DNA from: a virus
Strand: one strand, 5' to 3'
Length of the DNA stretch: 64,000 nt
Virus record (IMG/VR): IMGVR_UViG_3300016665_000824
Location: 64,001 to 128,000 of that record
How positions within the stretch are numbered: the first letter of the stretch is position 1; each line of letters opens with the position of its first letter. Positions 1,813-58,545 of the stretch are shown here, one piece after another. The position numbers and the translations under genes are program-made. The notes beneath the pieces are model-generated. The model was not told the origin of the DNA. It worked only from the letters and a program-made list of their open reading frames with translations, and ran no database searches.

Positions 1813-4394
1813 TAGCTCACCCTCCGAAACTTGTCGCGGGTTTCCCAGTAGGCTGCGAGGTAGACTTCCGATGTGGCGATCGCGTCGTTATTGAGTTGAC
1901 TGTCAATGAAGTCGCGTCCCTCCTTCTGCTTTTTCTGGATTTGCTCTTGTTGATAGGCGATCGCTTTTTGTAGTTTTGAGATCTGCTTCTCAGGGGTTAG
2001 TGTTCCAAATCCAGTTATATCTATCCCCATATTGGTTAGTGCTGTTTGAGATGCAGCTAGCGGCTTCTTCCCTGACTGAATTCGAGCAAGGGTCGCCTCT
2101 AAGGTCTTAGTGGTTGCCTCCATCTTGCTGATGTTGTTTTGAAGCGTTTTCAAGTCTATAGGCGGAGTAGCAGTCTTTGATTCAGTACTTGCAGCAGTAT
2201 CCACTGATTTATTTTTACGCGATCGTTTTTGGGTTGCGGTAGTACTGGTTGCAGTACTTACTGATTTACTGCTAGGCGATCGCGTAGAACTTTTTGAAAG
2301 GGGTGGCGCGGCGGAAGACTTAGCTCCGTAGTTTTCGGGATATCGGGCTTTGTTTTCTTGCACCAGTGATTCGTAGTAATCGGCGAATCCGTCTGCCGCT
2401 TCTTTTGCCTGTTCAAGGGAAAAGAAGCGGGTTTTATCTCTGTTCCTACCGCTAAACATATCGGCTAAATCTTCAGGTTCGTGCTCTTCGGTATAAACCA
2501 TCCACCCATCATCTTCTTTTTGGATGGAAATAAAGAGTGATGCGTCTTTGTCTGAAGCCTTTTTTCTTGCGTTGGAGCTGTATCTGTCAGCAGAGTCTGG
2601 ATCTTTAACCCACTCTCCAGCAATAACCTTGTCCAGCTTTTTATTGTATGTTTCTCGTGCTTTCTGTCTTCTCTCTGCGGCTTTCTGTTTTTTGGCAAAC
2701 TCTGCCAGTGTTTTTTCGGCGCTAGATACTAAACTGTTGGACTGACTTGAAGTCAAGTTGTCGGGTTTGCTGCTAGGCGATCGCTCTTGAGGGGTTTCGG
2801 GTTCTGCTTTAGGTGGTTTCGGAGCAACATACTTTTTACCAATCATCGCCTCATGCAGCAGCATTAATTCCTTGGCTTCAGAAGTATCAACACCTAGTGT
2901 CTCGATATCCCTAGCAATGACGGAGGCAAGCTTAGACTTTTGTTCTGGGGTAGCCTTGTCCGCAAACACCTCCTGATCCGACTGAGGAAACTTCTTGGTG
3001 TTTCTCAGCTCGTAAGCCGCATTTATGTTTGCTATCCCATCAACAGCCTTGGAAATCCTAACAGCTTCTTCCTGTGCTATTTCTTTCTTGCTTTTAGGTT
3101 TGACTGGAACATTCGCCTCCTGAGCGATCGCCGCTACTGGCTGGATAACTTCTTCAGTTTTTGGTTTTACCGCCCTGCTGCGACTCTTCTTAGGCTCGCC
3201 CTCTACGGGGTTTTTGGTTGATCTTTCTGTGTTAGGAGTCTCGTCTACCTGAGTTTTTGGAGGCTTAGCCGCTTTCTCTGTCGATCGAGACTTCGCCCGT
3301 GGGTTCTTGATGTTCTCGGCGATCGCCTCTTGAATCTTGTCTTGATTACGAGTAAACCGCATCTCGCCTACACGAATAACTCCTTTCCCATCCCTAAGAT
3401 CGATAGAGTATTGATTTGCACTCTCGGCAAGAGGAGTTCCTTTTTTCTTGTCAATGGCTCCACGAAACTGGATAGAGTCCTCAAGTCCATGTTCTTTAAG
3501 CTTGTCGTATAGTCGCTGCAAATCGACAGACTGTTTTTCGCGAGCAACCTTGTTTACAATACCGTTTCCTGCGCGAGCCTTTACGTCGTCGATACGGACA
3601 TATCCCTCATCATCAGCTAACTCAAGGTTCTGCTTCTTCCTCTCGATCTCTTCTGGGAGGAGTTGCTTACGTTTCAGTTCCGCAGCTAGAGCTAGTTCAT
3701 ACCCCCTCTTTTGGGCGGGGTAATTAACCGAAACTAGCTCCTTCAGGGCTTGAATCTTGGGTTGCTCAGCTTCGTATGCGGACTGGGCTTCTGGAGTTCT
3801 AACCTCTTGAGTCTTCTGCGGTTTTGTTACAGGAGTAGACTCAACCTGTTCAACTATGGGTTCAACCTCTTTAATATCTGTGTTTGCGGGTGGAGTTGAC
3901 TTGTTTGCGATCGCCGCACCAACACCCAATCCAACAGTCGCAGCCGCACCAACACCTACCGCAACATTTCTTGAAGTATTAGAGGGCGGAAGAGTTGGTC
4001 TCTGCCTAACGGGTTCCTGATAAGGTTCACTAGAACGCCCTGCGTTCACCACTGCGCCAGTCAAGGCTAGTCCGCCAACAGCTAATCCCGCACCGATCGC
4101 CGCTTTACTAAGAAAGCCCATCTCAGATTTTGGTGGTTCCTGCGATCGCGCCAATGCTCGCTCTAATTTTGATGGTGGTAGTACATTTACGCCCTGTCCT
4201 TGTGGAGCTTTCCGATAATAAAAACCACCCCTAACACGTCTATCCTGAACGCAAACATAACCTGCCCGTGGAGCGCAAGCATCGTAGCGCAACTTAACTT
4301 CTAGAGCCGCATCAATATACTCTTGAGGCATTACATCAAGAGTAATTTCGTCTAGATACAGACCAGCAAGGTAGTTCTTATCGAGATCTGGCAT
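1812..4394 (-). CDS. large (860 aa) membrane-anchored, low-complexity/coiled-coil protein of unknown function
   Basis: Two Gly/Ala-rich hydrophobic segments near N-terminus, long Lys/Glu/Ser/Thr-rich region; immediately upstream of Mu F-like gene. Confidence 0.55.
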   Translation of the reverse strand: MPDLDKNYLAGLYLDEITLDVMPQEYIDAALEVKLRYDACAPRAGYVCVQDRRVRGGFYYRKAPQGQGVNVLPPSKLERALARSQEPPKSEMGFLSKAAIGAGLAVGGLALTGAVVNAGRSSEPYQEPVRQRPTLPPSNTSRNVAVGVGAAATVGLGVGAAIANKSTPPANTDIKEVEPIVEQVESTPVTKPQKTQEVRTPEAQSAYEAEQPKIQALKELVSVNYPAQKRGYELALAAELKRKQLLPEEIERKKQNLELADDEGYVRIDDVKARAGNGIVNKVAREKQSVDLQRLYDKLKEHGLEDSIQFRGAIDKKKGTPLAESANQYSIDLRDGKGVIRVGEMRFTRNQDKIQEAIAENIKNPRAKSRSTEKAAKPPKTQVDETPNTERSTKNPVEGEPKKSRSRAVKPKTEEVIQPVAAIAQEANVPVKPKSKKEIAQEEAVRISKAVDGIANINAAYELRNTKKFPQSDQEVFADKATPEQKSKLASVIARDIETLGVDTSEAKELMLLHEAMIGKKYVAPKPPKAEPETPQERSPSSKPDNLTSSQSNSLVSSAEKTLAEFAKKQKAAERRQKARETYNKKLDKVIAGEWVKDPDSADRYSSNARKKASDKDASLFISIQKEDDGWMVYTEEHEPEDLADMFSGRNRDKTRFFSLEQAKEAADGFADYYESLVQENKARYPENYGAKSSAAPPLSKSSTRSPSSKSVSTATSTTATQKRSRKNKSVDTAASTESKTATPPIDLKTLQNNISKMEATTKTLEATLARIQSGKKPLAASQTALTNMGIDITGFGTLTPEKQISKLQKAIAYQQEQIQKKQKEGRDFIDSQLNNDAIATSEVYLAAYWETRDKFRRVS

Positions 4395-9552: not shown

Positions 9553-11208
9553 TTATTTGAGTCGTCCCTCAACCCACATCTTAGCAAAGGGAGAGTCCAA
9601 ATCCTTAAACAACCGAGAAGCAATTTCTACAGCCGAAACGGAATCCTGTTTAACACCTTCTTCGGGAGGTGTATCTGCTTGACCCTGATCTGCACCTTGA
9701 TCGCCAAAGTAGTCGCCACCTTGATCGCCGCCATATCCCTGTAGAGCTGCAAGCTCTTGTTGCTGCTTGGCTAATTCTTCATCCTGCTTCAGTTTTTCCC
9801 ACGCTTCCTTATCGAGAGAGACCTCATAGGAGTACTCTGTTCCACCGTAGAGGCTAGCGCGAACTTCATCCTTAGTAATTGCTCCCGACTGGGTTTGCAG
9901 AGCGATAAGCATATTAGTGTGAGCAGTTTGGTTGGCTACTTCATCTTTGCGACTCTCTACATAGAGGGGTTTAAACTTATAAGACCATCCTTCAGGGATC
10001 TTACCCTTCGTAGGGCCATCTTGAGCGAGCCAAATATACTTGTAAAGCATATCCAACTTGCGGTGGCGATAATTCTGCTCTTGATAGGCAGCAACGGTCT
10101 TTGACCAAACCTGATCTTCGGTTTCTCCAGTACCACCTGCCGCTAACCCTTTTGGTCCACGCCCAAAGATCATTGTGTAAGGAATCCCCACCGCAGCAAC
10201 CAAATCTTCTTGAAAGCTCGCTTTCATGTCGGACAAGCCTTGGTAGTTCCGCACTAGATAAGTAAGGTCATCTTCCGAGTCTACCGACACCGCCCCCAGC
10301 TTCCGCATCTGCATCTTCATGGCGCGAAACTGTTCTGAAAGAATGGTTAAAGCTTTTGGCACTCCATTGGTAGTGGCAGCTCCACCAGCAGCTTTTTCTT
10401 GGGCAAGATTTTGTTTGATCAGGTTTTGCAGGTTCTTCATCTTGTGGAGAAGAATCGTGTGATCTTGAATCATCTCCGCCATTGCGTCGGAGACTTTTGT
10501 GTAGCGAGCAATTTCTTTGAGTGCTGAGACGATTAGCGGATCGCCCCATCCACCCGTCGATCGCAACAATCTTGGAGGTAATCGAGAACCATCAAATCGA
10601 ATAATCCGCGATTTGTGAATTAAGTTGAACGAGGTGTAGTTTGAGCCTAACTTATCTATCTTGGATTTCGATTCTTGGGAGTAAAAGACCTGATAAAAGT
10701 CGGGGTCATCAGAGGGTGCATCAAGGTTTGGGAAATACGGGCGGATATCCTGCGGGTCAAGCTCGTAGATACCCTTGATGGTTTTAATTTTTGCCGTGTT
10801 AACTGGCTCGTTTGGGGGTAGCCCATCATCGATATTGACGAGAATAGCTGCGCCGCCATAAATATTCGCTAGCCAGTCAGCCTTATTAAATTTGTATTTC
10901 GCTTCTATCCTTTCTTCGTACTGTTCAAAGGCTGTGGCAATCTTGCGATCAGTGTCCTTAACTAAGCTAATCTCAGTCCATTTTCTTGTTGCCTCGTCAG
11001 GAAACACCGAGACAATTTTCTTTCCTAGCCAGTCCCTAGATAGTTCTTCGAGGGCTTTGTAGCTTAGTCTGCGCCGATCGCCTGTGCTATTCATCCCCAG
11101 ATCATTCTGAGCGAGCAGGTTGTTGTTGTACTCAGCCTCATAGAGCGCATCGATAATGGCTCCGTCTTGTCTCACATAGACTTCGGGATAATCTGTTTCT
11201 TTGGACAT
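9553..11208 (-). CDS. major virion structural protein (portal or major capsid candidate; not resolvable by eye)
   Basis: 551 aa ORF with Gly/Asp/Gln-rich C-terminal tail; preceded by intrinsic terminator and leader inverted repeat; downstream of a coiled-coil scaffold-like gene. Confidence 0.6.
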   Translation of the reverse strand: MSKETDYPEVYVRQDGAIIDALYEAEYNNNLLAQNDLGMNSTGDRRRLSYKALEELSRDWLGKKIVSVFPDEATRKWTEISLVKDTDRKIATAFEQYEERIEAKYKFNKADWLANIYGGAAILVNIDDGLPPNEPVNTAKIKTIKGIYELDPQDIRPYFPNLDAPSDDPDFYQVFYSQESKSKIDKLGSNYTSFNLIHKSRIIRFDGSRLPPRLLRSTGGWGDPLIVSALKEIARYTKVSDAMAEMIQDHTILLHKMKNLQNLIKQNLAQEKAAGGAATTNGVPKALTILSEQFRAMKMQMRKLGAVSVDSEDDLTYLVRNYQGLSDMKASFQEDLVAAVGIPYTMIFGRGPKGLAAGGTGETEDQVWSKTVAAYQEQNYRHRKLDMLYKYIWLAQDGPTKGKIPEGWSYKFKPLYVESRKDEVANQTAHTNMLIALQTQSGAITKDEVRASLYGGTEYSYEVSLDKEAWEKLKQDEELAKQQQELAALQGYGGDQGGDYFGDQGADQGQADTPPEEGVKQDSVSAVEIASRLFKDLDSPFAKMWVEGRLK

Positions 11209-11257
11209 ATTCAGTGGCGATCGCGTATGTCCATCTGACAGGCGATCGCCACTGAAT
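11209..11257. promoter_or_regulatory. perfect 16-bp inverted repeat (ATTCAGTGGCGATCGC / GCGATCGCCACTGAAT, 17-nt spacer) abutting the start codon of the 551-aa gene
   Basis: Read directly: arms 11209-11224 and 11242-11257; start codon at 11206-11208 on minus strand. Confidence 0.55.
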
Positions 11258-11279
11258 CAGGAGTATTTGCTAAAAAAGC

Positions 11280-11309
11280 AAAACAGGACTGCGTTGGCAA
11301 TCCTGTTTT
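11280..11309 (-). terminator. rho-independent terminator-like hairpin for minus-strand transcripts
   Basis: 9-bp stem AAAACAGGA/TCCTGTTTT with 12-nt loop; on the minus strand followed by GCTTTTTTA. Confidence 0.5.
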
Positions 11310-11310
11310 A

Positions 11311-11328
11311 GGTGATTCAGATCGGAAT
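11311..11328. repeat. 18-mer GGTGATTCAGATCGGAAT (copy 1), abutting stop codon of minus-strand gene 11329..12120
   Basis: Exact copy at 21272-21289; one-mismatch copy at 49106-49123. Confidence 0.6.
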
Positions 11329-12120
11329 CTATTCTGGGATGTCTATATCCCCAAGCGCTCTTATCTTCTCTCTAAACTCTATAAATGTCCTTACCACGCC
11401 TATGTAGTCACTAAATCGAGTCTTAAGCTCAGAGACTTCTTTCTGGCTTAGCTGTAGAGACTCAATATAGTTTTGTTCTCGATCCTTGAGGTTCGCGTTC
11501 TCTTCCTTAAGATCCGCAATCTGTCTGCGTAGATCGGCGATCGCTATTAGGATCTGATCAATCTCCTCCTTTGTTATTGCGCTTGGAGGATCTTCAAACT
11601 CCCCATTCTGTAGGGCGATCGCGCCAATCTTCCGAATAGCTTCGCGGTACTGAAGTCTTTCTTTCTGGAGGTCGTAGGCACTTTTCTCGATCTTTGTATA
11701 CTCTGCGTCAGTCACGTATGGAGGGGACTCCACTTCGACACACAGAAAGTTCGTGCCAATTCTTGCTAATCTATACCCAATCTCGGACTTAGCTCGACGG
11801 ATATGATTTATCTGGGATTCCAGCTTTGTATAGAACTCGTCGGTCTCAACGTCGGACGGAGAAAAACCTTCGTCTAGCAAGAGCCTGCCAAGATAATCAA
11901 TCTTTTTAGCGAATAGCTTCTTGGTTTCTACTGCTCGTTCGTAGTCTTCTAGCTGCTCAACATAGGTCTGTGCAAGCGTCTGAATACTCTCGTACTGCGA
12001 TCGCGGAACGAACCACTTGGAAAGGATGTCGTTAATTAGATTCAAATCAATCCTCCAGCTCATCTGCGTCTGGGGGTGCGGGAGTGCTAACCACAGTAAG
12101 CCAATTAGCTTTTTGCTCAA
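11329..12120 (-). CDS. coiled-coil protein (scaffold-like by composition and position)
   Basis: 263 aa, Glu/Lys/Leu/Gln-rich heptad-like stretches; immediately upstream of the major virion gene. Confidence 0.4.
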   Translation of the reverse strand: MSKKLIGLLWLALPHPQTQMSWRIDLNLINDILSKWFVPRSQYESIQTLAQTYVEQLEDYERAVETKKLFAKKIDYLGRLLLDEGFSPSDVETDEFYTKLESQINHIRRAKSEIGYRLARIGTNFLCVEVESPPYVTDAEYTKIEKSAYDLQKERLQYREAIRKIGAIALQNGEFEDPPSAITKEEIDQILIAIADLRRQIADLKEENANLKDREQNYIESLQLSQKEVSELKTRFSDYIGVVRTFIEFREKIRALGDIDIPE

Positions 12121-17595: not shown

Positions 17596-18051
17596 ATGTC
17601 TAACTCTAGTTCTGCCACAAAATTGGCGATCGCAAGATTAAAAGGATCTGACCTGCCTATTTTTGTTCCAGTTTCAGTCTCTGAGAAAGTCGCAACCCTA
17701 GTCAGGGAGTGTATTTTACAGTCCGACAGTTTAAAGATATTAAAAGTTACTACTACAGTTTACAACGAGCTTACTAAGCATTTAAAGCAGTACGAAAAGC
17801 CAAAATATACCATTCCTCAGTATCTTTTGATGCTCCTATATACGGTTTCTACTACTTCAGAATTGATCGAAAAACACAACAAGGGTTTAATTTCAGATGA
17901 CGAGTTTATTAACTGTATCAAAAACAACAAAAACGCAAACGGGACTAAAACCTCCCGCAAAATGGGTCGGAAGAAAGCAAGCGTTGATGCCAGCGATCGC
18001 GCAGTACTTCCCCGCGAGGTTCACAAAAGAACCAGTTCCAAGGTTTCTTGA
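17596..18051 (+). CDS. hypothetical protein (3-prime end overlaps methyltransferase start; true end uncertain)
   Basis: 151 aa ORF. Confidence 0.35.
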   Translation: MSNSSSATKLAIARLKGSDLPIFVPVSVSEKVATLVRECILQSDSLKILKVTTTVYNELTKHLKQYEKPKYTIPQYLLMLLYTVSTTSELIEKHNKGLISDDEFINCIKNNKNANGTKTSRKMGRKKASVDASDRAVLPREVHKRTSSKVS

Positions 18052-18814
18052 TTTCAAAAAGGGTGTCGGCAATTTCCACGACCCTTTCGTTGGTACTGGT
18101 AGTGCATTTTTGTATTTTGCGGATGGATTTCGAGGCGATCGCAAGATTTTTATTAGTGACAGTAATCCTGAACTCATTAATATTTGGCTGTGCATTCAAG
18201 CCGATCCTCTAAGGCTTTTAAGATCCTTGCTTGAATACAAGCGCCCTGTATTTAACAGCGCCGAATCGTACTATCACGAAAGGCAGATCTTCAATCAGCA
18301 GTTTAAAGGTTCTTACGACTACGAGCTAGCAGCAAGAATGATCTACTTAATTCAGGCTGGTTTCAATAGCCTATGGAGGGTTAACAGCGACGGTGAAATG
18401 AACACGCCTTTTGGCTCTCAGAAGCAAATTGCCCTTCTTACCGAGAATGATTTGACCGCGCTTTCGGTTCTCCTTCAAAAAGCGACAATCAAACATCAGC
18501 CTTTTGAAGAGTCGCTAAAAGATGTACAACCCAATGATGTCGTCTATCTCGACCCGCCATACATTGAAGTCAAAAAGAATTCCTTCAATAAATACACCAC
18601 AAAAGGTTTTAGCAGAGAGCAGCAGATACTCCTCCGCCAAGAAGCCGATCGCCTGCACGATCTAGGCGCTTATGTATACGCCAGTAATAGCGATACCCCC
18701 TTGAGTCGCGAAATTTGGTCGGGCTGGAAAATCGCAGAACTGACGAGATCGGGCTGCATGAACTCAGATGCAACCAAGCGTCAACGGGTTGGAGAGTTGT
18801 TATTTTATAAATAA
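17897..18814 (+). CDS. dam: DNA N6-adenine methyltransferase, Dam/D12 class
   Basis: KWVGRK near N-terminus, FVGTGS AdoMet-binding-like motif, DPPY catalytic motif. Confidence 0.7.
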   Translation: MTSLLTVSKTTKTQTGLKPPAKWVGRKQALMPAIAQYFPARFTKEPVPRFLDFKKGVGNFHDPFVGTGSAFLYFADGFRGDRKIFISDSNPELINIWLCIQADPLRLLRSLLEYKRPVFNSAESYYHERQIFNQQFKGSYDYELAARMIYLIQAGFNSLWRVNSDGEMNTPFGSQKQIALLTENDLTALSVLLQKATIKHQPFEESLKDVQPNDVVYLDPPYIEVKKNSFNKYTTKGFSREQQILLRQEADRLHDLGAYVYASNSDTPLSREIWSGWKIAELTRSGCMNSDATKRQRVGELLFYK

Positions 18815-19418: not shown

Positions 19419-19423
19419 ACACT

Positions 19424-19690
19424 ATGAGAAAACAAGTCCACTATGCCGTTCGCGCCGTTAAAGCCTTGATGGATGGCGATGTTGTAACAATCGATGGGAT
19501 GGATTATATCTATCAAGACGGGCAGATACTGATAAGGGCTACTCGCATTGAAGACGGCGTTGAGTCTGAAGTATGGCTGGGAGGAATGTGCTCCGAAATG
19601 AGTCTCGACTACTTTTTGAATTACTGCGCCAACAAAACTTTTGAAGATCAAGTTCTCGATTTTCCCGTAAAAATTCCATCACGGTACTAA
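19424..19690 (+). CDS. hypothetical protein
   Basis: 88 aa ORF. Confidence 0.4.
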   Translation: MRKQVHYAVRAVKALMDGDVVTIDGMDYIYQDGQILIRATRIEDGVESEVWLGGMCSEMSLDYFLNYCANKTFEDQVLDFPVKIPSRY

Positions 19691-19691
19691 T

Positions 19692-19901
19692 ATGAATACA
19701 CAAATTAAGCTCAGGCATTCCGTTGTTTTACCTACACCCCTAAAAGTTGGCGATCGCGTAGAAATCGCAGGTCCATCTCGCCACGTTGGAATTATTACGG
19801 AGATTAAAGATAGTCCATATTCGGGGCTATCCTACAGCGTCAAGTTTGGCAGCAATATCCGTCTTGACCGTATCGCCCCAGAAGCCTTGACAAAGTTATG
19901 A
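19692..19901 (+). CDS. hypothetical protein
   Basis: 69 aa ORF, 4-nt overlap with next gene. Confidence 0.4.
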   Translation: MNTQIKLRHSVVLPTPLKVGDRVEIAGPSRHVGIITEIKDSPYSGLSYSVKFGSNIRLDRIAPEALTKL

Positions 19902-20230
19902 TTAAGAAGCGTCCAGCGATCGGGCGGCTAGTAAGGTTGCCAAGTAAAATCGTCACTGTTGTGGGGTATAAGGATGGGGTTTTTCTAGTCCGCGTCGGCA
20001 CGGGAAAGACTCAGAAAATCACGGAATCGTTTCTTATGGCGCACGGCGTTCTTGTCGAGAAGGAGTGGCGCGAGGAGAAGAAGTCTGCACCCAAACAGGA
20101 ATACGTGAACCGAGAGTTTAAACGCTTCTTTGAGGAGCGAGCCGAAAGGGACTACCAAGAAAAAGTTCTTAAGGGCTTTAAGATTGAGGATGAAGTTATC
20201 GAAGGATTTGAGGCGATCGCGGAGGAATAA
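19898..20230 (+). CDS. hypothetical protein
   Basis: 110 aa; ends in junction repeat GGCGATCGCGGAGGAATAA. Confidence 0.4.
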   Translation: MIKKRPAIGRLVRLPSKIVTVVGYKDGVFLVRVGTGKTQKITESFLMAHGVLVEKEWREEKKSAPKQEYVNREFKRFFEERAERDYQEKVLKGFKIEDEVIEGFEAIAEE

Positions 20231-20233
20231 ATG
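20212..20233 (+). repeat. gene-junction repeat GGCGATCGCGGAGGAATAA + ATG (copy 1)
   Basis: Identical 19-mer at 20419-20437; degenerate third copy at 20682-20703. Confidence 0.7.
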
Positions 20234-20437
20234 GATATCGAAGAACTTGTTGCCGCAGCATCCGTAAGTCGGCATATATATCTTGAGCGCGTCGGCAAAG
20301 GTAGGCTACCAAAAGGATTTCCCTGTGGTGAGCTAATGTGCGTTAATTCGGACGGCAACCGAACTTATTTATTTGATTCGGCGAAAGTCTTAAAGTGGTG
20401 TCGAAAGCAAAATAATCAGGCGATCGCGGAGGAATAA
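20231..20437 (+). CDS. small DNA-binding protein candidate (excisionase/AlpA-like HTH)
   Basis: 68 aa; overall resemblance to excisionase-type HTH proteins; weak. Confidence 0.3.
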   Translation: MDIEELVAAASVSRHIYLERVGKGRLPKGFPCGELMCVNSDGNRTYLFDSAKVLKWCRKQNNQAIAEE

Positions 20438-20439
20438 TG
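20419..20439 (+). repeat. gene-junction repeat GGCGATCGCGGAGGAATAA + ATG (copy 2)
   Basis: Read directly; combines HIP1, GGAGGA, stop TAA and next ATG. Confidence 0.7.
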
Positions 20440-20703
20440 CGAAAAATAGACAAGGACTACAGTTTTACAGAACGAGAGATTCAGGCGTTAATGTTGATAT
20501 GCACTATTGGACGAGAAGACTGGCTCACTAAAGAGGTGAAGGAGATATTGTCGCAATACATAAGCAGAAAGATGTATCACAGGACTGCTTCTCAAGTCTT
20601 TGCTCACAGAAAAAGAGTTCTGGGTTCTTTCCCTAGCAATGCGGGTAAATACTTACTTGAAAGGCGAACTAGCTTTATTGAGCGATCGCGGAGGAGTGAG
20701 TAA
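20437..20703 (+). CDS. hypothetical protein
   Basis: 88 aa; ATG overlaps upstream stop (TAATG). Confidence 0.4.
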   Translation: MRKIDKDYSFTEREIQALMLICTIGREDWLTKEVKEILSQYISRKMYHRTASQVFAHRKRVLGSFPSNAGKYLLERRTSFIERSRRSE

Positions 20704-20710
20704 AAATATA

Positions 20711-20745
20711 AAAAGACGATCCGACGTGAGATCGGATCGTCTTTT
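20711..20745. terminator. bidirectional intrinsic terminator between convergent genes
   Basis: 14-bp perfect stem AAAAGACGATCCGA/TCGGATCGTCTTTT, 7-nt loop; A-run on one side and T-run on the other. Confidence 0.6.
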
Positions 20746-20874
20746 TATATTTTGGTAGGCTGTGAAACAACTAATACAAAAGGGTTTTAGGGTATTGGAA
20801 GGAATTTTGGTAAGGTGTGAATCTCGCTGCTTTTTAATTACGCGAATACACGTAATTCATATTTACCAATACCT

Positions 20875-22632
20875 CTAGCTAGCGATCGCCATTAATTTAG
20901 TCAACCCAGCCTTCCGCAACATCTCTTGCTGGAGCTTGGTTTGAAAATATGGCTTATCCTCAGCACTTGCTACTCGATACAGTTCCAGCCAGTATTTCTC
21001 CCGCTTCTCGCAGTGTATATGCTGAATCTTGGCGATCGCACGGTCAACCACTGCCTTGACATCGCCAGCGATCGCCTCTTGCATTGCGTAAGGTATGTCC
21101 GAAAAGTCATCGTTCAGGAATTTATCCCACAGCGCACAGTGATCGTCATGGGCAAATTCGATCTCTTGAAGCAGGATATACCCCCGCAAATCGGGATGAT
21201 GGACAAAGGCTTTTAGTATCTGCATTTCGGCTAGTTGCAGAGCAGTATAACTGGGTTTTGCGGCAACCTGTGGTGATTCAGATCGGAATACCGATCGCGC
21301 AAGTCGATGTAAATCCTCCTCAATGCGTACGGCAAGGCGAGCATTTCCCTGAGCTAACTTCTGAGCACACTTATGGGTATAGTGGCTACGTCGGGCATCC
21401 ATCGGCAATGGGGCGAGTATTTGCGCGATCGCTTGATTAGCTCGCTGGAAGTCGGCAGAATTGTTAAGGTCTTTGCCCTTAATCTCAAGGTCAATTAACC
21501 AGTCAAGGTATAGCGGCGCTTCGCGGAGCAGCGATAAGTACGCTTCAGAACCATAAGTGGTTAGGTACTCGTCGGCATCTTTTTTGCCCTCAATGGTTAG
21601 TATCCGTAGATTTACCGTACCATCCAGAACTAGCTCTAGGACTTGACTTACGGCTTTTTTAGTTGCCGTAACACCTGCTTTGTCCGAGTCGAAGTTGCAA
21701 ACTATACGCTTCGACTCAGTATGGCGTAAAACCTGTTTAATTTGAGCGGCGCTAAGCGCTGTGCCCATTGAGCCGACTGCATGGGTAATTCCATTTTGGT
21801 GCAGGGAAATCACGTCGAGGTGTCCTTCGACAATTACCGCCTCGTCGTTCTTGGCGATCGCCTCACAAGCTTTGTCTAGTCCAAACAGTAGTTCACCCTT
21901 TTTGAACAACTCGGTTTCGGGCGAGTTGATATACTTTGCGCCGTCGTCCTCACCGCTTAGCGATCGCGCAGAAAATCCAACCACGCGACCACGGATATCG
22001 GCGATCGGGATAATCAGGCGATCGCGAAATCGGTCATAGTAGCCTTCGTTTTCTTTGCGAGGTATCGCCAACCCCAATTCTTCAAGAGTTTGAACGGGGA
22101 TATTTAACTCGGCAAGGTTACTCCACCCCGCAGGCGCGTAACCGAGCTTGAACTTATTGCAGGTATCTCTGGTGATTTTGCGTTTTTCTAAGTAGGCAAG
22201 GGCTTTGGTGTTGAGCTGTTGCTGGTAGTAACGAGTGACTTTAGCTATTTGATCGAAGAGGTATTCCCTGTGCGATCGCTCCTTAACGATTTGCTCGGCA
22301 TGTTCTGGCTCTTCGGTTCTTACTTCAACCCCGTAACGACCAGCCAAATCTAGTACGGCATCTGGGAACGATTTATGACCAATCTCCATCATAAACTTGA
22401 TCGCACCACCCGACGCACCGCAGTTATGGCAGTAATACATGCCTTTGCTGGGGTCTACCGAGAGGGCGCTGGGATTCGTGCCGTTGTGAAATGGGCAAGC
22501 GCCACGAAATGAGTGACCCGACCGCTTAAGTACGACGTTTTCGCTAACGACATCAACGATGTCGGCTTTGTCGTTTACTGCGGCGATCGTATCAGCATGG
22601 ATTCGGAATGATTTAGGTTTGGCGGATTGCAT
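20875..22632 (-). CDS. DNA primase, DnaG-like (CHC2 zinc finger + Toprim)
   Basis: CPFHNGTNPSALSVDPSKGMYYCHNCGASG zinc-binding motif; Toprim-like EGHLDVISL and NFDSDKAG. Confidence 0.75.
   Translation of the reverse strand: MQSAKPKSFRIHADTIAAVNDKADIVDVVSENVVLKRSGHSFRGACPFHNGTNPSALSVDPSKGMYYCHNCGASGGAIKFMMEIGHKSFPDAVLDLAGRYGVEVRTEEPEHAEQIVKERSHREYLFDQIAKVTRYYQQQLNTKALAYLEKRKITRDTCNKFKLGYAPAGWSNLAELNIPVQTLEELGLAIPRKENEGYYDRFRDRLIIPIADIRGRVVGFSARSLSGEDDGAKYINSPETELFKKGELLFGLDKACEAIAKNDEAVIVEGHLDVISLHQNGITHAVGSMGTALSAAQIKQVLRHTESKRIVCNFDSDKAGVTATKKAVSQVLELVLDGTVNLRILTIEGKKDADEYLTTYGSEAYLSLLREAPLYLDWLIDLEIKGKDLNNSADFQRANQAIAQILAPLPMDARRSHYTHKCAQKLAQGNARLAVRIEEDLHRLARSVFRSESPQVAAKPSYTALQLAEMQILKAFVHHPDLRGYILLQEIEFAHDDHCALWDKFLNDDFSDIPYAMQEAIAGDVKAVVDRAIAKIQHIHCEKREKYWLELYRVASAEDKPYFQTKLQQEMLRKAGLTKLMAIAS
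21272..21289. repeat. 18-mer GGTGATTCAGATCGGAAT (copy 2), inside primase coding sequence
   Basis: Encodes VFRSESP in the primase frame. Confidence 0.6.
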
Positions 22633-25102: not shown

Positions 25103-25466
25103 TTTTTAATCCGCAACGTAATTTTGTTGTGCTATTGTTGTAATCACCAAAGAAGCAAATGAGAGACCCACCTGCTAAAAATAAGCAAAAAATAAAAGAG
25201 CCAACCGCCAAGTCGCTCTTTCATTCTTTGAAAATGATTGTTTGTTTCACTTCAGTTTCGGTTGTTCCTTCCACCTCGTCGTTTACACGCCTTGGCTGTT
25301 TGTGTTCAACACGACACTAATTTCCTGAATACTCTAACACATGGCGATCGCTTTGTGAAGGGGAATTTACGGAATTGGTGAAAAAACTGGAAGACAAGTG
25401 GTTTCTTGGGAATCTCAAGAACGCTTTGGTTGTTTTTTACACTTTAGTTTCGTAGGAAATTTAGTT

Positions 25467-25997
25467 ATGCTCTCAAGCGAAGAATACATACGCGACAGAC
25501 AAGACTTCGGTTGCTGGGAAGCCCGTATATTTTACTCCCCAGAATTAGATGCCGTTGTTGCGGCAGGTTTTATGGATGGGTTGATCTTCAACAAGGAAGA
25601 ACTCTTCCAGCTAGGCTCATTACTCCTTGATGCCTCAATTAACGTTTCGGGTAAAGACATCTGCCACCTCAATAATCGGACATCGGCGAGAGGTCGTTCT
25701 GACAAGGATTTTTGGCTACAGCGCAAGAATAGATCTGGACTCGTGTATCTAATCAAGGCGATCGGGACTAACTACTACAAAATTGGTAGAACAAAAGATA
25801 TTGAGACTAGATTAGAGACCCTGCAAAAGTCATCTCCATTCGACCTCTCGCTGATTCTTGCCATAGAAACATCAGACTCTTTGGCTCTAGAGAGGTACTT
25901 CCACGATAAGTACAATGATTGTCGAGTTAGGGGTGAGTGGTTTGAGCTAGATGAGTATGCGATCGCTGAATTTATGAGCTACGAGGAGGTCGCGTGA
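25467..25997 (+). CDS. GIY-YIG / T5orf172-like nuclease domain protein
   Basis: GLVYLI...YYKIGRTKDIETRLETL pattern; start placed at internal ATG 25467. Confidence 0.45.
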   Translation: MLSSEEYIRDRQDFGCWEARIFYSPELDAVVAAGFMDGLIFNKEELFQLGSLLLDASINVSGKDICHLNNRTSARGRSDKDFWLQRKNRSGLVYLIKAIGTNYYKIGRTKDIETRLETLQKSSPFDLSLILAIETSDSLALERYFHDKYNDCRVRGEWFELDEYAIAEFMSYEEVA

Positions 25998-31089: not shown

Positions 31090-31823
31090 TTGAAAGGCAA
31101 GTTAAACTGCTGGTTCTAGACAAAGACGGTACACTCGTTCGCCCCAAATCTGGCAATACCTTCGTCCAGCACCCCGAAGATCAGGAGCTAATCGAAGGAG
31201 TGGCTGAAGCTATTCAGAGGTATGTTGCTGATGGATGGCAGTTGGCGATCGCGTCAAATCAGGGTGGATGCGAAGTGCGATGGTGTCACCCCGCCGAATT
31301 ACCTGTAGGTAGTTACTGCAATGTAGATAACATTGCCATCAAGGTTGAATACCTTCAAGACACTGGTGAGTTTATACTCGTAAATGGGCATCACCCACTA
31401 CCAAAAACTAGGTTTGCGAAGTTCCAATACAAGACTCTCGGCATAGCGATCGCAGAGATGCAGTATGCGATGAAGCTGATCGGCATTCAGTATCATGGTC
31501 TATTCTGTCCAGACATGCAAGGGAATGAATGCTACATGACTTCGGACTTTGCTGCTCCGCCATTACACAAGGTTGATAGATACAAACACTTAATAGGCTC
31601 GTTCCGTAAGCCCAGTGGTGGAATGTTGCTAGCATTAAAGCAGCACTTTGAAACACATCTTGATGATGTTGATCGGCTGCTCATGATCGGCGATCGTCCC
31701 GAAGATTTGGGATCGGCTCAAGCCGCAGGATTCGATTTTGTGTGGGCAGAAGACTGGCGAAATAACGAACTAGACAAAGTTCTGCCCTACAGGAGCGAAG
31801 AATGGATCGCTCTGAACTCCTAA
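31086..31823 (+). CDS. HAD-superfamily phosphatase
   Basis: N-terminal VLDKDGTL (DxDGT motif I) and C-terminal MIGDRPEDLGSAQAAG (motif IV-like). Confidence 0.5.
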   Translation: MIERQVKLLVLDKDGTLVRPKSGNTFVQHPEDQELIEGVAEAIQRYVADGWQLAIASNQGGCEVRWCHPAELPVGSYCNVDNIAIKVEYLQDTGEFILVNGHHPLPKTRFAKFQYKTLGIAIAEMQYAMKLIGIQYHGLFCPDMQGNECYMTSDFAAPPLHKVDRYKHLIGSFRKPSGGMLLALKQHFETHLDDVDRLLMIGDRPEDLGSAQAAGFDFVWAEDWRNNELDKVLPYRSEEWIALNS

Positions 31824-32101
31824 CTCGCATCCAAGTCCAGCGAATGTGGCTAGAGGACATCCGTGGCAAGTCTCTAGCTCCTCAGTTGGAGATTTGGAAG
31901 AACAAATACCTTGCCGCAAATAATCTCACGCATCTGGATGCTCAGGGGCTGGAGCAACTGCTTAAGGCTCTTGAGTCTATGACTAAGGCTACGGTGAGTA
32001 ACGCCGAGGAATTGGATAGTCAGATGCGCGAGAGGATTAAGAGTGGCGACTACTCGATTCGATTTGTTGAAAAGATTGTTGAAGATGATGAATATTTTTA
32101 G
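31802..32101 (+). CDS. hypothetical protein
   Basis: 99 aa; 3-prime end encoded by junction repeat R1. Confidence 0.4.
   Translation: MDRSELLTRIQVQRMWLEDIRGKSLAPQLEIWKNKYLAANNLTHLDAQGLEQLLKALESMTKATVSNAEELDSQMRERIKSGDYSIRFVEKIVEDDEYF
32074..32100 (+). repeat. junction repeat R1 (GATTGTTGAAGATGATGAATATTTTTA), copy a
   Basis: Identical 27-mer at 32619-32645; both followed by a purine-rich RBS-like GGAGG/AGAGG. Confidence 0.75.
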
Positions 32102-32120
32102 GAGGAGGTAAACCCCAACC

Positions 32121-32336
32121 ATGCGAAACGCCTACTTAACACTTTTTGTGATCAACACCCGTTCAGGACTCGCAGTTAATTATTCAATCAATACCGCAGC
32201 CGACCAGAAGGAGGCTAGAGCCGATGCTCTACTACTCATCGATGAGAGATATCGAGGTCAAAATATTCAGGTTCTAGAAACATCTATTATTCCAAACGAA
32301 GTTATCGATCAGGTTTATGAGTCTCGACACGAGTAA
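32121..32336 (+). CDS. hypothetical small protein
   Basis: 71 aa; GGAGGAGG RBS upstream. Confidence 0.4.
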   Translation: MRNAYLTLFVINTRSGLAVNYSINTAADQKEARADALLLIDERYRGQNIQVLETSIIPNEVIDQVYESRHE

Positions 32337-32340
32337 ACTC

Positions 32341-32384
32341 GATCGCCACTTTTTCAGATCTGAATTACCACAAAAGCACAATGA
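32341..32384 (+). repeat. junction repeat R2 (...AGATCTGAATTACCACAAAAGCACAATGA), copy a
   Basis: 29-bp identical core at 32356-32384 and 33097-33125, flanked by near-identical GATCGNCNCTTTTT. Confidence 0.75.
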
Positions 32385-32614
32385 TTTTAGAGGCCTATTA
32401 TGAAACGTGGGTATCTCGCCCCATTCAAAAGAGAGCTAAAGGTCGAGCCACCTATAGTAAGCCGCAGTGGGAGCATACCTCAGACACAGAAGAAGAGGCG
32501 ATCGCTCACAACAAGATGCTTTCGGCTTACTACCCCGACTGGAAGATTGAAATCAGGGCTGTCGAACAAAAACGAGAATACTGGGATGTCAAGACTGCGG
32601 CAGTTCGAGATTAA
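32381..32614 (+). CDS. hypothetical small protein
   Basis: 77 aa; ATG supplied by junction repeat R2; alternative frame 32400..32627 also open. Confidence 0.35.
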   Translation: MILEAYYETWVSRPIQKRAKGRATYSKPQWEHTSDTEEEAIAHNKMLSAYYPDWKIEIRAVEQKREYWDVKTAAVRD

Positions 32615-32618
32615 AGAA

Positions 32619-32645
32619 GATTGTTGAAGATGATGAATATTTTTA
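32619..32645 (+). repeat. junction repeat R1, copy b
   Basis: See copy a. Confidence 0.75.
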
Positions 32646-32655
32646 AGAGGTTAAT

Positions 32656-33147
32656 ATGGCAAGTGTCAAGCATTATTTAAGTTGCCCAGCTAAGCCCTAC
32701 GAAGAAGGGATACCCTTATACTCCGATCGCCTGAGAGAATGGTTTCACGATATCGGTGATGTCTGGGAATACTACGAAGATCAGATCGGAGAAGATGAGG
32801 ATATTGATCTTGAATGGGCGGAAGCCAAGCAATCGCCTCAAGGTATTTGTGAAATGGCTCGTCTTTTCTTAGGTAGACCAGTTTATTTGCCGTGGGCTGA
32901 GATTCCTGAATTTGATCTACCTGATGGTGTTGACGATATCTCGGAAATACTGCCGCCAAGCCACGAGATCAACATAAAACTTGCCGAGTTAAACAAGCTT
33001 ATCGAAGAAACAAAGCTGGTTGTTTGCTACGAGGAGTCTAGCTACCGCCCAGATCCAGAAACCTTGGACTTTAAGTGCGCGATCGTCGCTTTTTTTAGAT
33101 CTGAATTACCACAAAAGCACAATGAAAGCTCGACAGTTCGAGATTAA
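32656..33147 (+). CDS. hypothetical acidic protein
   Basis: 163 aa; C-terminal codons lie in second copy of repeat R2. Confidence 0.4.
   Translation: MASVKHYLSCPAKPYEEGIPLYSDRLREWFHDIGDVWEYYEDQIGEDEDIDLEWAEAKQSPQGICEMARLFLGRPVYLPWAEIPEFDLPDGVDDISEILPPSHEINIKLAELNKLIEETKLVVCYEESSYRPDPETLDFKCAIVAFFRSELPQKHNESSTVRD
33081..33125 (+). repeat. junction repeat R2, copy b
   Basis: See copy a; supplies C-terminal codons of gene 32656..33147 and the ATG of gene 33122..33376. Confidence 0.75.
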
Positions 33148-33376
33148 ATTTAGAAACCATCCAGAGTGCGATCGCCTAGTCGAAGCCACCAGTCATGCCA
33201 AAGCCAAGATGAAGCTCGCCTACGAGTTGGTTGAGGCGGGAGTATTTAATACTTTTGGAGAGGCTTTACTGGCGATCGCCACCTGCCGAGTCTTACAGCC
33301 AATGAAGCGAGGGAAACCCGAAGGGTGGTATCGGGTGAACCCTAAACGAAAAACAACAAGGAACAAAAAGCAGTGA
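33122..33376 (+). CDS. hypothetical small basic protein
   Basis: Internal ATG at 33122 (supplied by R2 copy) inside track ORF 33020..33376. Confidence 0.35.
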   Translation: MKARQFEIKFRNHPECDRLVEATSHAKAKMKLAYELVEAGVFNTFGEALLAIATCRVLQPMKRGKPEGWYRVNPKRKTTRNKKQ

Positions 33377-34086: not shown

Positions 34087-34401
34087 ATGCTAGACCCCAT
34101 AGAGCTACAGGTCAGTATTTTCGAGATGGAGTTCACGCAGGCGATCGCGCACCAATCCCTCCCAGAAGCAAGAAAGGCAGTAGCCGATTATTTGCAGCTA
34201 CTGGAGCACAAGAAGGACTCGACAATCAGGCTGAGACCCCAAGTGACATCCTTGGTTTCTGGGCTGGAGACCCTCTCGATAGATTTACTAATTCAATCAA
34301 CCGAAAGTCGGGAGGAACTCAAGGCGATCGCGGTAAGGATTTGCAGGATGTTGCTGAAACTAAACACGCTGCTCAAGGAAGCGGTGAGCGGGATCTGCTA
34401 A
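34087..34401 (+). CDS. hypothetical protein
   Basis: 104 aa ORF with protein-like composition; overlapping track ORF 33993..34631 looks out-of-frame in its middle. Confidence 0.3.
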   Translation: MLDPIELQVSIFEMEFTQAIAHQSLPEARKAVADYLQLLEHKKDSTIRLRPQVTSLVSGLETLSIDLLIQSTESREELKAIAVRICRMLLKLNTLLKEAVSGIC

Positions 34402-34627
34402 CCCAGCAGGACATTATCCTAGACAAGATGCGTCGGAAGCAATCGGAATTTGAAGACTACTACGTTTTTAGCACTCACGACATAGTGACCCTATGTGAGG
34501 ACAGTCATCTGGACTGGGACTTGGCTTTTGACCAGCTAATAGCTTTAAACAAGAGGAATCTAGTTGCTATAAATCCGACATATTGCGATCGCACAGGCAA
34601 ATTTATCGGATTGTTGTGGGGTTTAAA

Positions 34628-35572
34628 ATGAGTAAAACCGTAGCCACGATGTATTCTGGCTTTGGCGGAGTTGATCAGGGTTTCGTTTTGGCAGGGTATA
34701 CGCCAGTCTTTGCGATCGATAACAATCCTGATGCAGTAGCGGTTTATATCGAGAATTTTGGCAACCACTGTCTAGAGAAGGACGTTTGTGAGTTTGATTA
34801 TTCAAGAGTTAAAGCAGATCACCTCCATGCTTCTCCAAGCTGCAAAGAGTTTAGTAGCGCCAATCACCGTAGTAGCGAAACCGATCTCGATATTCGATGC
34901 GCCCAAGCTACGGTTAAGGCGATCGCACAGATAAACCCTCAAACATTTTCCCTCGAAAATGTAAAGCAGTACGCTAAGTCTAAGTCTTTTGATTTGATTA
35001 GGCGATCGCTACGAGAAATGGGCTACGCCTGCAACGTAACCGTAGTCAACGCGAAGGATTTCGGTGTATCCCAATCACGAGAAAGGCTAATTCTTCGAGC
35101 ATGGGTTAAATCCCGCAAACGCCCTAGACCTTTGGCGTTGTACAAACAGTGTTTAACAATGGGGTGGCATGACGCGATCGCCGATTTAATCCCCACTCTC
35201 AAACCACAACCATTGAATAATTGGCAGCTAGCCTCTCTTGAGGAGCAGGGTATAGACCCCACCAACCTAACTGCACTGGTTAGCAAAGATGGGTCTCGCA
35301 AGAAAAAAGGCTTTAAAAATACTTTTGCCTTGGTAATCCCCTCGTCCAAGCCTTGCCCAACCCTCAAGGCAATGGGGCATAATCAGCACTGTCAGCAGTA
35401 TTCGATTGTGGTTAACGGTGTTGGTTATCGGATTTCTACCGAGGCGATCGCGAGACTAATGAGCTTTCCCGACTCATTCAAATTCTCAGGAGTGAATTAT
35501 AAAGACTGTATGGGTTTAGGTAATGCAGTACCGCCATTATTGGTAAGAGCGATCGCGGAAAGTTTTGCTTAA
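34628..35572 (+). CDS. DNA (cytosine-5)-methyltransferase
   Basis: Motif I-like MYSGFGG, catalytic PSCKEFSSAN (Pro-Cys), ENV motif; start at internal ATG 34628. Confidence 0.65.
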   Translation: MSKTVATMYSGFGGVDQGFVLAGYTPVFAIDNNPDAVAVYIENFGNHCLEKDVCEFDYSRVKADHLHASPSCKEFSSANHRSSETDLDIRCAQATVKAIAQINPQTFSLENVKQYAKSKSFDLIRRSLREMGYACNVTVVNAKDFGVSQSRERLILRAWVKSRKRPRPLALYKQCLTMGWHDAIADLIPTLKPQPLNNWQLASLEEQGIDPTNLTALVSKDGSRKKKGFKNTFALVIPSSKPCPTLKAMGHNQHCQQYSIVVNGVGYRISTEAIARLMSFPDSFKFSGVNYKDCMGLGNAVPPLLVRAIAESFA

Positions 35573-35605
35573 AAATCCATAAAACTACCACAAAATCGAG
35601 TTATC

Positions 35606-35875
35606 ATGAAGGAATCTGATTTAGACAATGCGATCACGCAGGCAGAACAGTTTTTAATTCTCGCAAAAGAGCTAAAAGCTGGCTTTCAAGCTCAGAAGAA
35701 GGTGATCGCCGAGGCAGAAGCCGAGGTGATTCGCGAAAATCTATCTGAGACATACGCGGAAAATAAAATCTTTTTCGCCCGTTACAACAACAAGATGGAG
35801 GGAACGAGACTAATGGGTGCAGTAAAGCATTCCTGTGTTACCCTCTCCCTCTTTTTAGCAAAGCTGAGGAAATAA
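35606..35875 (+). CDS. hypothetical protein
   Basis: 89 aa ORF. Confidence 0.4.
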   Translation: MKESDLDNAITQAEQFLILAKELKAGFQAQKKVIAEAEAEVIRENLSETYAENKIFFARYNNKMEGTRLMGAVKHSCVTLSLFLAKLRK

Positions 35876-58441: not shown

Positions 58442-58545
58442 ATGCACAAGAAATCCCGAAATCGTGTGCATGTTTATTCAATATACACAAGCAACCCGCC
58501 AAGCCTCTCTACGATGCTGAAACTGGCGGGTTGCTTGTGTTGTGA

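Follow-up and report, generated by a model that had tools for sequence, protein, structure and literature searches.

The tail of a conserved ORFan as the probable junction of a gene-cassette slot in an uncultured cyanophage

Why should consecutive genes without any resemblance to each other end in the same few nucleotides? The question is raised by a 64,000-nt stretch of viral DNA (positions 64,001 to 128,000 of the IMG/VR record IMGVR_UViG_3300016665_000824; hereafter, the window), in which two small genes, designated here gpA and gpB, end in an identical junction that combines the octamer HIP1 (GCGATCGC), a Shine-Dalgarno (SD) sequence, a stop codon and the following gene's start, and in which an imperfect copy lies at the end of the third gene, gpC. 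An earlier note on this DNA offered two proposals for the junction: an engineered-looking linker for translational coupling, or a site at which small gene cassettes recombine. Our comparisons lead us, with reasonable confidence, to consider the tail of gpA as the junction of a hyperplastic gene-cassette slot, with the HIP1/linker sequence being the point where genes are exchanged and, at once, the translation signal for newcomers. The features of the locus are as follows:

19898..20230, plus strand: gpA, a conserved ORFan of 110 aa and the anchor gene of the slot; its C-terminus, ...IEDEVIEGFEAIAEE and stop, includes HIP1.
20211..20233, plus strand: linker copy 1, consisting of A-G-HIP1 (HIP1 at 20213-20220), the GGAGGA SD (20221-20226), A, TAA (20228-20230) and the ATG of gpB (20231-20233).
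20231..20437, plus strand: gpB cassette, an ORFan of 68 aa ending in QAIAEE.
20418..20439, plus strand: linker copy 2, consisting of A-G-HIP1 (HIP1 at 20420-20427), GGAGGA (20428-20433), A, and TAA (20435-20437) overlapping the ATG of gpC (20437-20439).
20420..20689, plus strand: block containing gpC and running from HIP1 to HIP1, 270 bp, with one mismatch (99.6% identity) to positions 255-524 of the related lineage L013.
20437..20703, plus strand: gpC cassette, an ORFan of 88 aa ending in ...IERSRRSE.
20681..20703, plus strand: linker copy 3, a putative relic, consisting of A-HIP1 (HIP1 at 20682-20689), GGAGGA (20690-20695) and GTGAGTAA.
20703..20753, bidirectional: intrinsic terminator hairpin with perfect arms of 22 nt (z = -6.5), located at the end of the operon, opposite the convergent primase gene.
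20875..22632, minus strand: DnaG-type primase gene, convergent with the operon and conserved as the right-hand anchor of the slot.

The repeat is longer than the earlier note described: the exact 19-mer GGCGATCGCGGAGGAATAA (20212-20230 and 20419-20437) is preceded in both places by an identical A, giving two exact copies of the 20-mer AGGCGATCGCGGAGGAATAA (20211-20230 and 20418-20437), and a third copy of the 19-mer, with three mismatches, is found at 20681-20699. Three matches were reached in none of 100 dinucleotide-preserving shuffles (mean 0.01) and, likewise, only around 0.004 pairs of HIP1 sites would be expected to share 11 more flanking bases (17,020 pairs x 4^-11, from 185 sites). The claims that two proteins share the C-terminal peptide AIAEE and that each stop is fused to a ribosome-binding site and to the next start were both confirmed: gpA ends in EAIAEE and its TAA directly abuts the ATG of gpB at 20231, while gpB ends in QAIAEE and its stop overlaps the start of gpC as TAATG, with GGAGGA 5′ of each start. 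The claim that three genes share the junction stood for copies 1 and 2 and failed for copy 3, so that a stop/start junction exists in two of the three copies. The upstream part of copy 3 is 1 nt shorter (GAG-CGATCGC) and is consequently out of register for gpC, which ends in ERSRRSE because it enters HIP1 in another frame; in the frame of gpA and gpB the same sequence would read AIAEE-TGA, and it is followed by the hairpin terminator and by no start codon. We interpret copy 3 as the displaced tail of a resident gene.

The 19-mer could have been a frequent sequence of host coding regions, which the earlier note had named as the finding that would speak against its proposal, and it is not: there were no exact matches in IMG/VR, nor any to a relaxed 18-mer with R, and only five in 596 Gb of species-representative genomes, compared to around four expected by chance. 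These chance-level counts, and the lack of matches in IMG/VR, ruled out a host-wide motif. The only cyanobacterial match, in a metagenome-assembled genome (L004; JBCBTQ010000061.1), has an unrelated context: the motif is read in a different frame, close to where an unrelated open reading frame (ORF) begins, and there are no homologs of gpA, gpB, gpC or the primase. In L004, on the reverse strand (ca. 3106-3131), 21 nt match the tail of gpB (CAGGCGATCGCGGAGGAATAA) and ATTA comes next, which is also the case at the gpB|gpD junctions of L010 and L021. Given the numbers of HIP1 in cyanobacterial genomes, this is probably a chance match and, less probably, a phage-derived fragment.

The region from gpA through the terminator to the primase was available for 12 lineages, and all the comparators are metagenomic contigs. 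The slot between gpA and the shared terminator is empty in five of them and occupied in the other seven, with the following contents:

Terminator only (empty slot): L006/L017, L008, L024/25, L026 and L027.
gpB-gpC: the window.
gpE-gpC-gpF: L013.
gpB-gpD: L010-12 and L021-23.
gpC: L014/15.
gpG: L019/20.
gpE′: L018.

Thus, gpB is missing from L006, L008, L024, L026 and L027 and follows gpA in L010-12 and L021-23, whereas homologs of gpC are found in L013 (99%) and in L014/15 (70%). In an all-vs-all BLASTP comparison the cassette genes, gpB to gpG, are six mutually unrelated ORFans with only a 6-residue tail in common; the same comparison ruled out that gpA, gpB and gpC are paralogs. The cassettes are promoterless single ORFs in one orientation, variable between relatives, and their sequences indicate that they are real genes. 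Eleven of the 12 gene-to-gene junctions within the slot consist of HIP1, or of HIP1 with 1-2 mismatches, plus rGAGGA and a stop that overlaps or abuts the next start, and the combination of HIP1 and GGAGGA was not found at any other gene end or junction of the window. The junction type of linker copy 1 also precedes gpB in L010 and L021, and HIP1 plus GGAGGA precedes gpC both in L013, after gpE, and in L014, after gpA. The motif accompanies the presence of a following gene: gpE ends in VAIAEE in L013, where gpC follows, whereas the gene that is last before the terminator lacks it, as with gpE′ of L018, ending in KKN. Nearly all the homologs of gpA (n = 17, with 52-100% identity) end in ...IEDEVIEGFEAIAEE (AIAEE) or a close variant, and as judged from these sequences the motif is the native, conserved C-terminus of gpA, AIAEE and stop, with the HIP1 octamer inside (GCG ATC GCN GAR GAA TAA).

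The comparison of the window with L013 locates the exchange to the nucleotide. The 270-bp block listed above opens exactly with one HIP1 octamer and closes exactly with a second one, and its flanks are unrelated: on the left, gpB in the window versus gpE in L013, and on the right, GGAGGAGTGAGTAA and the terminator in the window versus CTAGATAG and gpF in L013. The HIP1 at the 3′ side of gpC is the same in three contexts and is then followed by three different sequences, with only 8-9 bp in common at the crossover. Additionally, the sequence immediately following HIP1 changes together with the cassette downstream, being GGAGGAATAA(A)TG for gpB, rGAGGAArTATGA for gpE and GGAGGAGTAAAATG for gpG. 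When we excised cassettes in silico from HIP1 to HIP1, the upstream gene regained an in-frame stop within 1-3 codons in all seven cases, with tails such as QAIAEE for gpB, ...STVAIA for gpE and EAIAEE, ...NAIAK, ...EAIVEE and ...EAITEE for gpA. The gpA tail rebuilt in this way for L010 (GCGATCGTAGAGGA, AIVEE and stop) is that actually present in gpA of its empty-slot sister lineage L026.

The divergence of neighboring genes is also discordant. Between the window and L010/L021, gpB shows 83% nucleotide identity, with a synonymous divergence (dS) of 0.6-0.8 and a ratio of nonsynonymous to synonymous divergence (dN/dS) of 0.11-0.16, whereas in the same comparison the adjacent gpA is only 61-63% identical and its dS is saturated; gpB has therefore moved laterally. 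These comparisons demonstrate a combinatorial gene content, breakpoints at HIP1 or the linker and the lateral transfer of gpB. They bear out the second alternative of the earlier note, a recombination junction for small gene cassettes, for which relatives with an empty slot or with other gene orders, and breakpoints at the motif or at HIP1, are now found.

The same few nucleotides probably have a second role in translation. The GGAGGA lies 4 nt (gpB) and 3 nt (gpC) before the ATG, and is rare as an SD elsewhere in the window (ca. six other genes). Its association with slot occupancy is also observed, in 6 of the 7 occupied lineages and none of the 5 empty ones (Fisher p = 0.008), with both states interspersed across the gpA clades; empty lineages show in its place synonymous variants such as GAAGAA or GGAAGA. 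No significant RNA structure was found at the junctions (fold z = +1.1 and +0.2), nor any promoter- or terminator-like site at 20211-20233 or 20418-20439. The layout is that of coupled junctions, with the stop overlapping or abutting the next start (TAATG, TAA|ATG) and the SD inside the upstream ORF. These sequence features support that GGAGGA is a working SD, and translation of the downstream gene is probably coupled to that of the upstream gene. Accordingly, of the "engineered-looking translational-coupling linker" we retain the second part, on account of the stop/start layout, the spacing of GGAGGA, the unstructured RNA and the 6/7 versus 0/5 distribution, and abandon the first, since the motif is the native C-terminus of gpA.

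In the model that we propose, cassettes with the structure GGAGGA-stop-start-ORF-HIP1 would enter the slot, leave it or replace each other among related phages through recombination at the HIP1/linker of the gpA tail, possibly by a double crossover of co-infecting genomes, by Campbell-type integration of an excised circle, or by cleavage and rejoining at HIP1. Once a cassette had been inserted, the gene upstream of it would read into its leader and so gain its ...EE end (AIAEE), and the old tail of the resident gene would be displaced 3′ of the new cassette, which would account for the out-of-frame third copy with its orphan SD. The leader would bring a strong SD and, 3-4 nt further on, a start in contact or overlapping with the upstream stop, and since the leader supplies the SD, any arriving gene would be translated, probably in a coupled manner, from the operon mRNA, which would be ended by the single terminator. 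The junction of an excised circle is predicted to read ...ATTGA-GCGATCGC-GGAGGAATAATG..., or ...TTTATTGA-GCGATCGC-GGAGGAATAATGCG.... That only 8-9 bp are in common at the 3′ side of gpC argues for microhomology annealing, for cutting and rejoining at HIP1 or for a site-directed activity, and not for RecA-type exchange.

Several observations weigh against this model or narrow it. The ends of alignments between the window and L028/L006 are not enriched at HIP1 (5 of 62 within 5 nt of a HIP1, versus 3.6 expected; p = 0.29), in a test that is noisy at 80-90% identity, and the excess of HIP1 located 8-21 nt before stop codons outside the slot is mild and not significant (8 versus 4.3 expected). An indel upstream of gpA (19419-19690), involving an ORF of 88 aa, has no HIP1 at its left edge and involves none, and the linker of a second slot, described below, lacks HIP1 altogether. 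HIP1 is not, therefore, a general breakpoint in this phage family, and the HIP1-precise crossover is specific to the gpA slot. Some of the comparator contigs are shorter than 1 kb, all are metagenomic, and the lineages are not phylogenetically independent. Likewise, the link between the SD and slot occupancy is no independent proof of selection, because the SD may simply travel with the cassette. We infer the direction of each event (insertion or deletion), as well as the enzymology and the coupling. Finally, no recombinase, integrase or single-strand annealing protein, Rad52-like or other, was recognized among the ca. 60 ORFs of the window using Pfam and PHROGs (64 of the 134 kb of the contig), the only finds being a single-stranded DNA-binding protein (SSB), RusA and a T5orf172 nuclease-like protein.

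The second slot (32072-32650) shows a comparable organization and, in this respect, speaks in favor of the model. A 34-nt sequence, AAGATTGTTGAAGATGATGAATATTTTTAGGAGG (KIVEDDEYF, stop and SD), which is the end of the gene at 31802-32101 plus an SD, is duplicated at 32072-32105 and 32617-32650 and surrounds the ORFs 32121-32336 and 32381-32614; the relative L028 contains it only once and lacks both extra ORFs. Since this slot repeats the junction without HIP1, the general rule would be a duplicated junction of C-terminal codons, stop and SD around the cassettes. The region of this second slot (up to 33148) also contains nested repeats, namely a 35-nt leader at 32350-32384 and 33091-33125, with a CGATCG core before each copy, and an 18-nt repeat at 32598-32615 and 33131-33148. 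In the gene at 33122-33376, an in-frame segment of 186 nt (33166-33351) is missing in L028, and its left edge is 2 nt from the HIP1 at 33168.

A stronger version of the model is that HIP1 is a true site-specific integration site, where an activity directed to HIP1 or CGATCG, and possibly sensitive to methylation, would cut and rejoin cassettes delimited by HIP1 on either side, or recombine them at the octamer; we consider this possible, although rather unlikely. We give slightly less credit to the explanation that a dedicated HIP1-/CGATCG-specific nuclease or recombinase, from the host or the phage and maybe dependent on methylation, operates the slot as an integron-like capture site, in which case the slot would not stem from generic recombination at short homologies. 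The 8-9 bp of HIP1 in common at the 3′ crossover of gpC, in three contexts, are too short for RecA-type exchange and would fit such machinery, as would the D12 N6-adenine and C5 cytosine methyltransferases of the phage, which belong to the classes acting on GATC and CGATCG within HIP1 in cyanobacteria. It also agrees with reports on plasmid recombination at HIP1-like sites, on the insertion of SDR5 and on methylation-stimulated integration (PMC4390886; bioRxiv 10.1101/2024.09.10.611283). Conversely, our scan of the window identified no such enzyme, breakpoints are not enriched at HIP1 genome-wide, the 34-nt linker of the second slot has no HIP1, and the single orientation of all the cassettes would not be enforced by a palindromic cut site alone.

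Convergence without recombination is improbable. Each junction would have evolved its SD and stop/start alone, and HIP1 would be there through the general process responsible for its hyperabundance; HIP1 is indeed very dense (185 copies per 64 kb) and in mild excess shortly before other stop codons, and GGAGGA tracks the presence of a downstream gene. However, convergence cannot account for a 270-bp block bounded exactly by HIP1 between unrelated flanks, an out-of-frame third copy with an orphan SD beside the terminator, or a clade-specific tail variant (GCGATCGTAGAGGA) that follows gpB in L010 and gpA in the sister lineage L026. The success of all seven excision reconstructions, the discordant dS of gpB and gpA, and the confinement of the combined HIP1 and GGAGGA to these junctions of the window are also contrary to it, and we consider convergence largely refuted by the block, dS and excision data.

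We attach very little probability to transposition with target-site duplication, by which a mobile element would have entered behind gpA duplicating ca. 20 bp each time. Direct repeats do flank gpB and gpC, but the cassettes contain neither a transposase nor terminal inverted repeats, 20 bp would be exceptionally long for such a duplication, the repeat after gpC in L013 and L014 is reduced to HIP1, and the only transposon seen, a TnpB element in the terminator of L008, is unrelated to the cassettes. Least probable of all is that one ancestral gene was duplicated in tandem and its copies then diverged, or that the assembly failed at a repeated k-mer, as would be suggested by the adjacency, similar size and common 3′ ends of the genes: gpA to gpG show no detectable similarity outside the tail, the repeat, with 20 nt, does not reach the k-mer length of the assemblers (k141, to judge from the contig names, and 31 in Logan), and the arrangement of the window was found in the jgi, lgn and ena collections, with the locus of the ENA contig being identical.

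Among known systems, the closest functional relative of the gpA slot is the promoter-early stem-loop (PeSL), a mobile regulatory cassette that T4-type phages carry in hyperplastic regions (Arbiol et al., 2010, PMC2839356; Comeau et al., 2014, PMC4122927). In both cases a short conserved expression signal flanks small, non-essential ORFans in a plastic region, the motif delimits the indels and replacements that distinguish close relatives (here, 11 of 12 junctions with the linker and block edges at HIP1), and the motif would both mediate exchange and secure expression of the incoming gene. The slot is not, however, a PeSL member, because its motif is translational instead of a promoter plus a terminator: a PeSL combines a sigma-70 promoter with a terminator, whereas here there is an SD with a stop/start in the last codons of the upstream gene. 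Our motif is also smaller than the composite PeSL, with ca. 20 nt and a minimal crossover of 8 bp, has a host-type HIP1 palindrome at its core and relies on one terminator for the whole array; mini-circles arising from neighboring motifs are a feature of PeSL and are here only predicted.

The slot resembles integrons (attI/attC and IntI) in its promoterless single-ORF cassettes in one orientation, each with a palindrome-containing recombination site at its end, in the insertion beside a fixed anchor with expression from upstream signals, and in the existence of empty and variously filled arrays in relatives. It differs from them in that we found no IntI tyrosine recombinase with attI among the scanned ORFs, and no long inverted repeat like attC; instead, there is an 8-bp palindrome in a 20-nt linker with a non-significant fold z. 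By comparison, integron attC sites are folded sequences of 57-141 bp. Moreover, the site is here within a coding sequence and alters the C-terminus of the upstream protein.

The octamer is the same as HIP1 of cyanobacteria and is hyperabundant in the phage as in its presumed host. The function of HIP1 is still unsettled (PMC5861425). It has been linked to site-specific recombination, including the insertion of SDR5 precisely within HIP1 (PMC4390886), and in strain PCC 7002 homologous HIP1 sites stimulate integration in a Chi-like manner, independently of AddAB and enhanced by methylation (bioRxiv 10.1101/2024.09.10.611283). The precise HIP1-bounded insertion described here resembles that of SDR5 and the HIP1-linked recombination of plasmids; however, those reports deal with the chromosomes of hosts, with plasmids or with transformation (Elhai, 2015, PMC4390886; Xu et al., 2018, PMC5861425; Kamoku and Nielsen, 2024, bioRxiv 10.1101/2024.09.10.611283), and our literature search yielded no account of phages with protein-coding cassettes bounded by HIP1. 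Boundary sequences common to unrelated modules also act as crossover points in the linker mosaicism of modular theory (De Paepe et al., 2014, PMC3945230), although the homology is here reduced to 8-9 bp on one side and no Rad52-like or other annealing protein was recognized in the window.

The locus offers a view, at the level of single bases, of how ORFan accessory genes are gained and swapped in a family of uncultured cyanophages through one short linker that would ensure their translation, and the slot can be regarded as the equivalent, in translation, of PeSL in T4-type phages. It ties HIP1 to exact crossover points around protein-coding cassettes, constituting a natural substrate for testing the role of HIP1 in recombination, and if HIP1 were truly an integration site, the gpA tail would be an integron-like capture platform and would provide natural evidence on a role debated for around 30 years. 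The linker could also serve as a design element for gene insertion in operons of cyanophages or cyanobacteria.

The window lies in a 134-kb metagenomic contig of a tailed phage and encodes a portal protein, the large terminase, DnaB, DnaG, a Pol III beta clamp, SSB and RusA, together with dCTP deaminase, thymidylate synthase and the D12 N6-adenine and C5 cytosine methyltransferases. The 185 copies of HIP1 in 64 kb, when no other 8-mer palindrome exceeds five copies, are a cyanobacterial signature, and we take the source to be an uncultured cyanosiphovirus. The nearest isolated phages by portal protein are S-CBS4, vB_AphaS-CL131 and PaV-LD, with ca. 30% identity, and we found neither nucleotide matches nor gpA matches in 50,697 phage records. 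Genes gpA, gpB and gpC are the end of a same-strand operon that starts at ca. 17.6 kb; this early operon contains a Dam-type methyltransferase gene, a DUF4326 gene, small genes and gpA, with the slot at its 3′ end. The cassette proteins (47-88 aa) had no Pfam or PHROG match, and their AlphaFold models were of low confidence (pLDDT of 59.6 for gpC and 51.5 for gpB), with the AIAEE tail of gpB modelled as disordered. A distant homolog of gpB, P0003, reads ...NQAIPNE... and then runs on. We found no Rfam family and no tRNAs at the locus.

The terminator is the only inverted repeat near the slot, and an equivalent hairpin is found 3′ of the slot in every relative. In L008 (IMGVR_UViG_3300046328_001165), an element of ca. 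1.4 kb is inserted inside this hairpin, whose stem halves, aaaaagatccgat and atcggatctttttt, flank the insert; it codes (10340-11715) for a TnpB-type protein of 397 aa with OrfB_IS605, Cas12f1-like TNB and helix-turn-helix domains. Between the terminator and the primase stop, the window contains an 18-nt direct repeat, ATTTTGGTArGGTGTGAA, at 20749-20766 and 20804-20821, and the spacer between terminator and primase is longer than in the relatives. Upstream of gpA, positions 19419-19747 are another variable position: an ORF of 88 aa (19424-19690) is missing in L006, and in other relatives an ORF of 131-132 aa separates the DUF4326 gene from the gene upstream of gpA.

The methyltransferase genes of the window are located at 17897-18814 (D12-class N6-adenine) and 34583-35572 (C5-cytosine), and L028 has a different sequence in the region of the latter (ca. 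34401-35843 of the window). Genes of the T5orf172/MUG113 type, related to GIY-YIG-like nucleases, are found several kb from the slot, both in the window (25398-25997) and in L018 (6799-6947). Lastly, positions 58495-58531 of the plus strand match the Rfam abiF RNA motif (RF03085) with 46.9 bits, versus a gathering score of 37.

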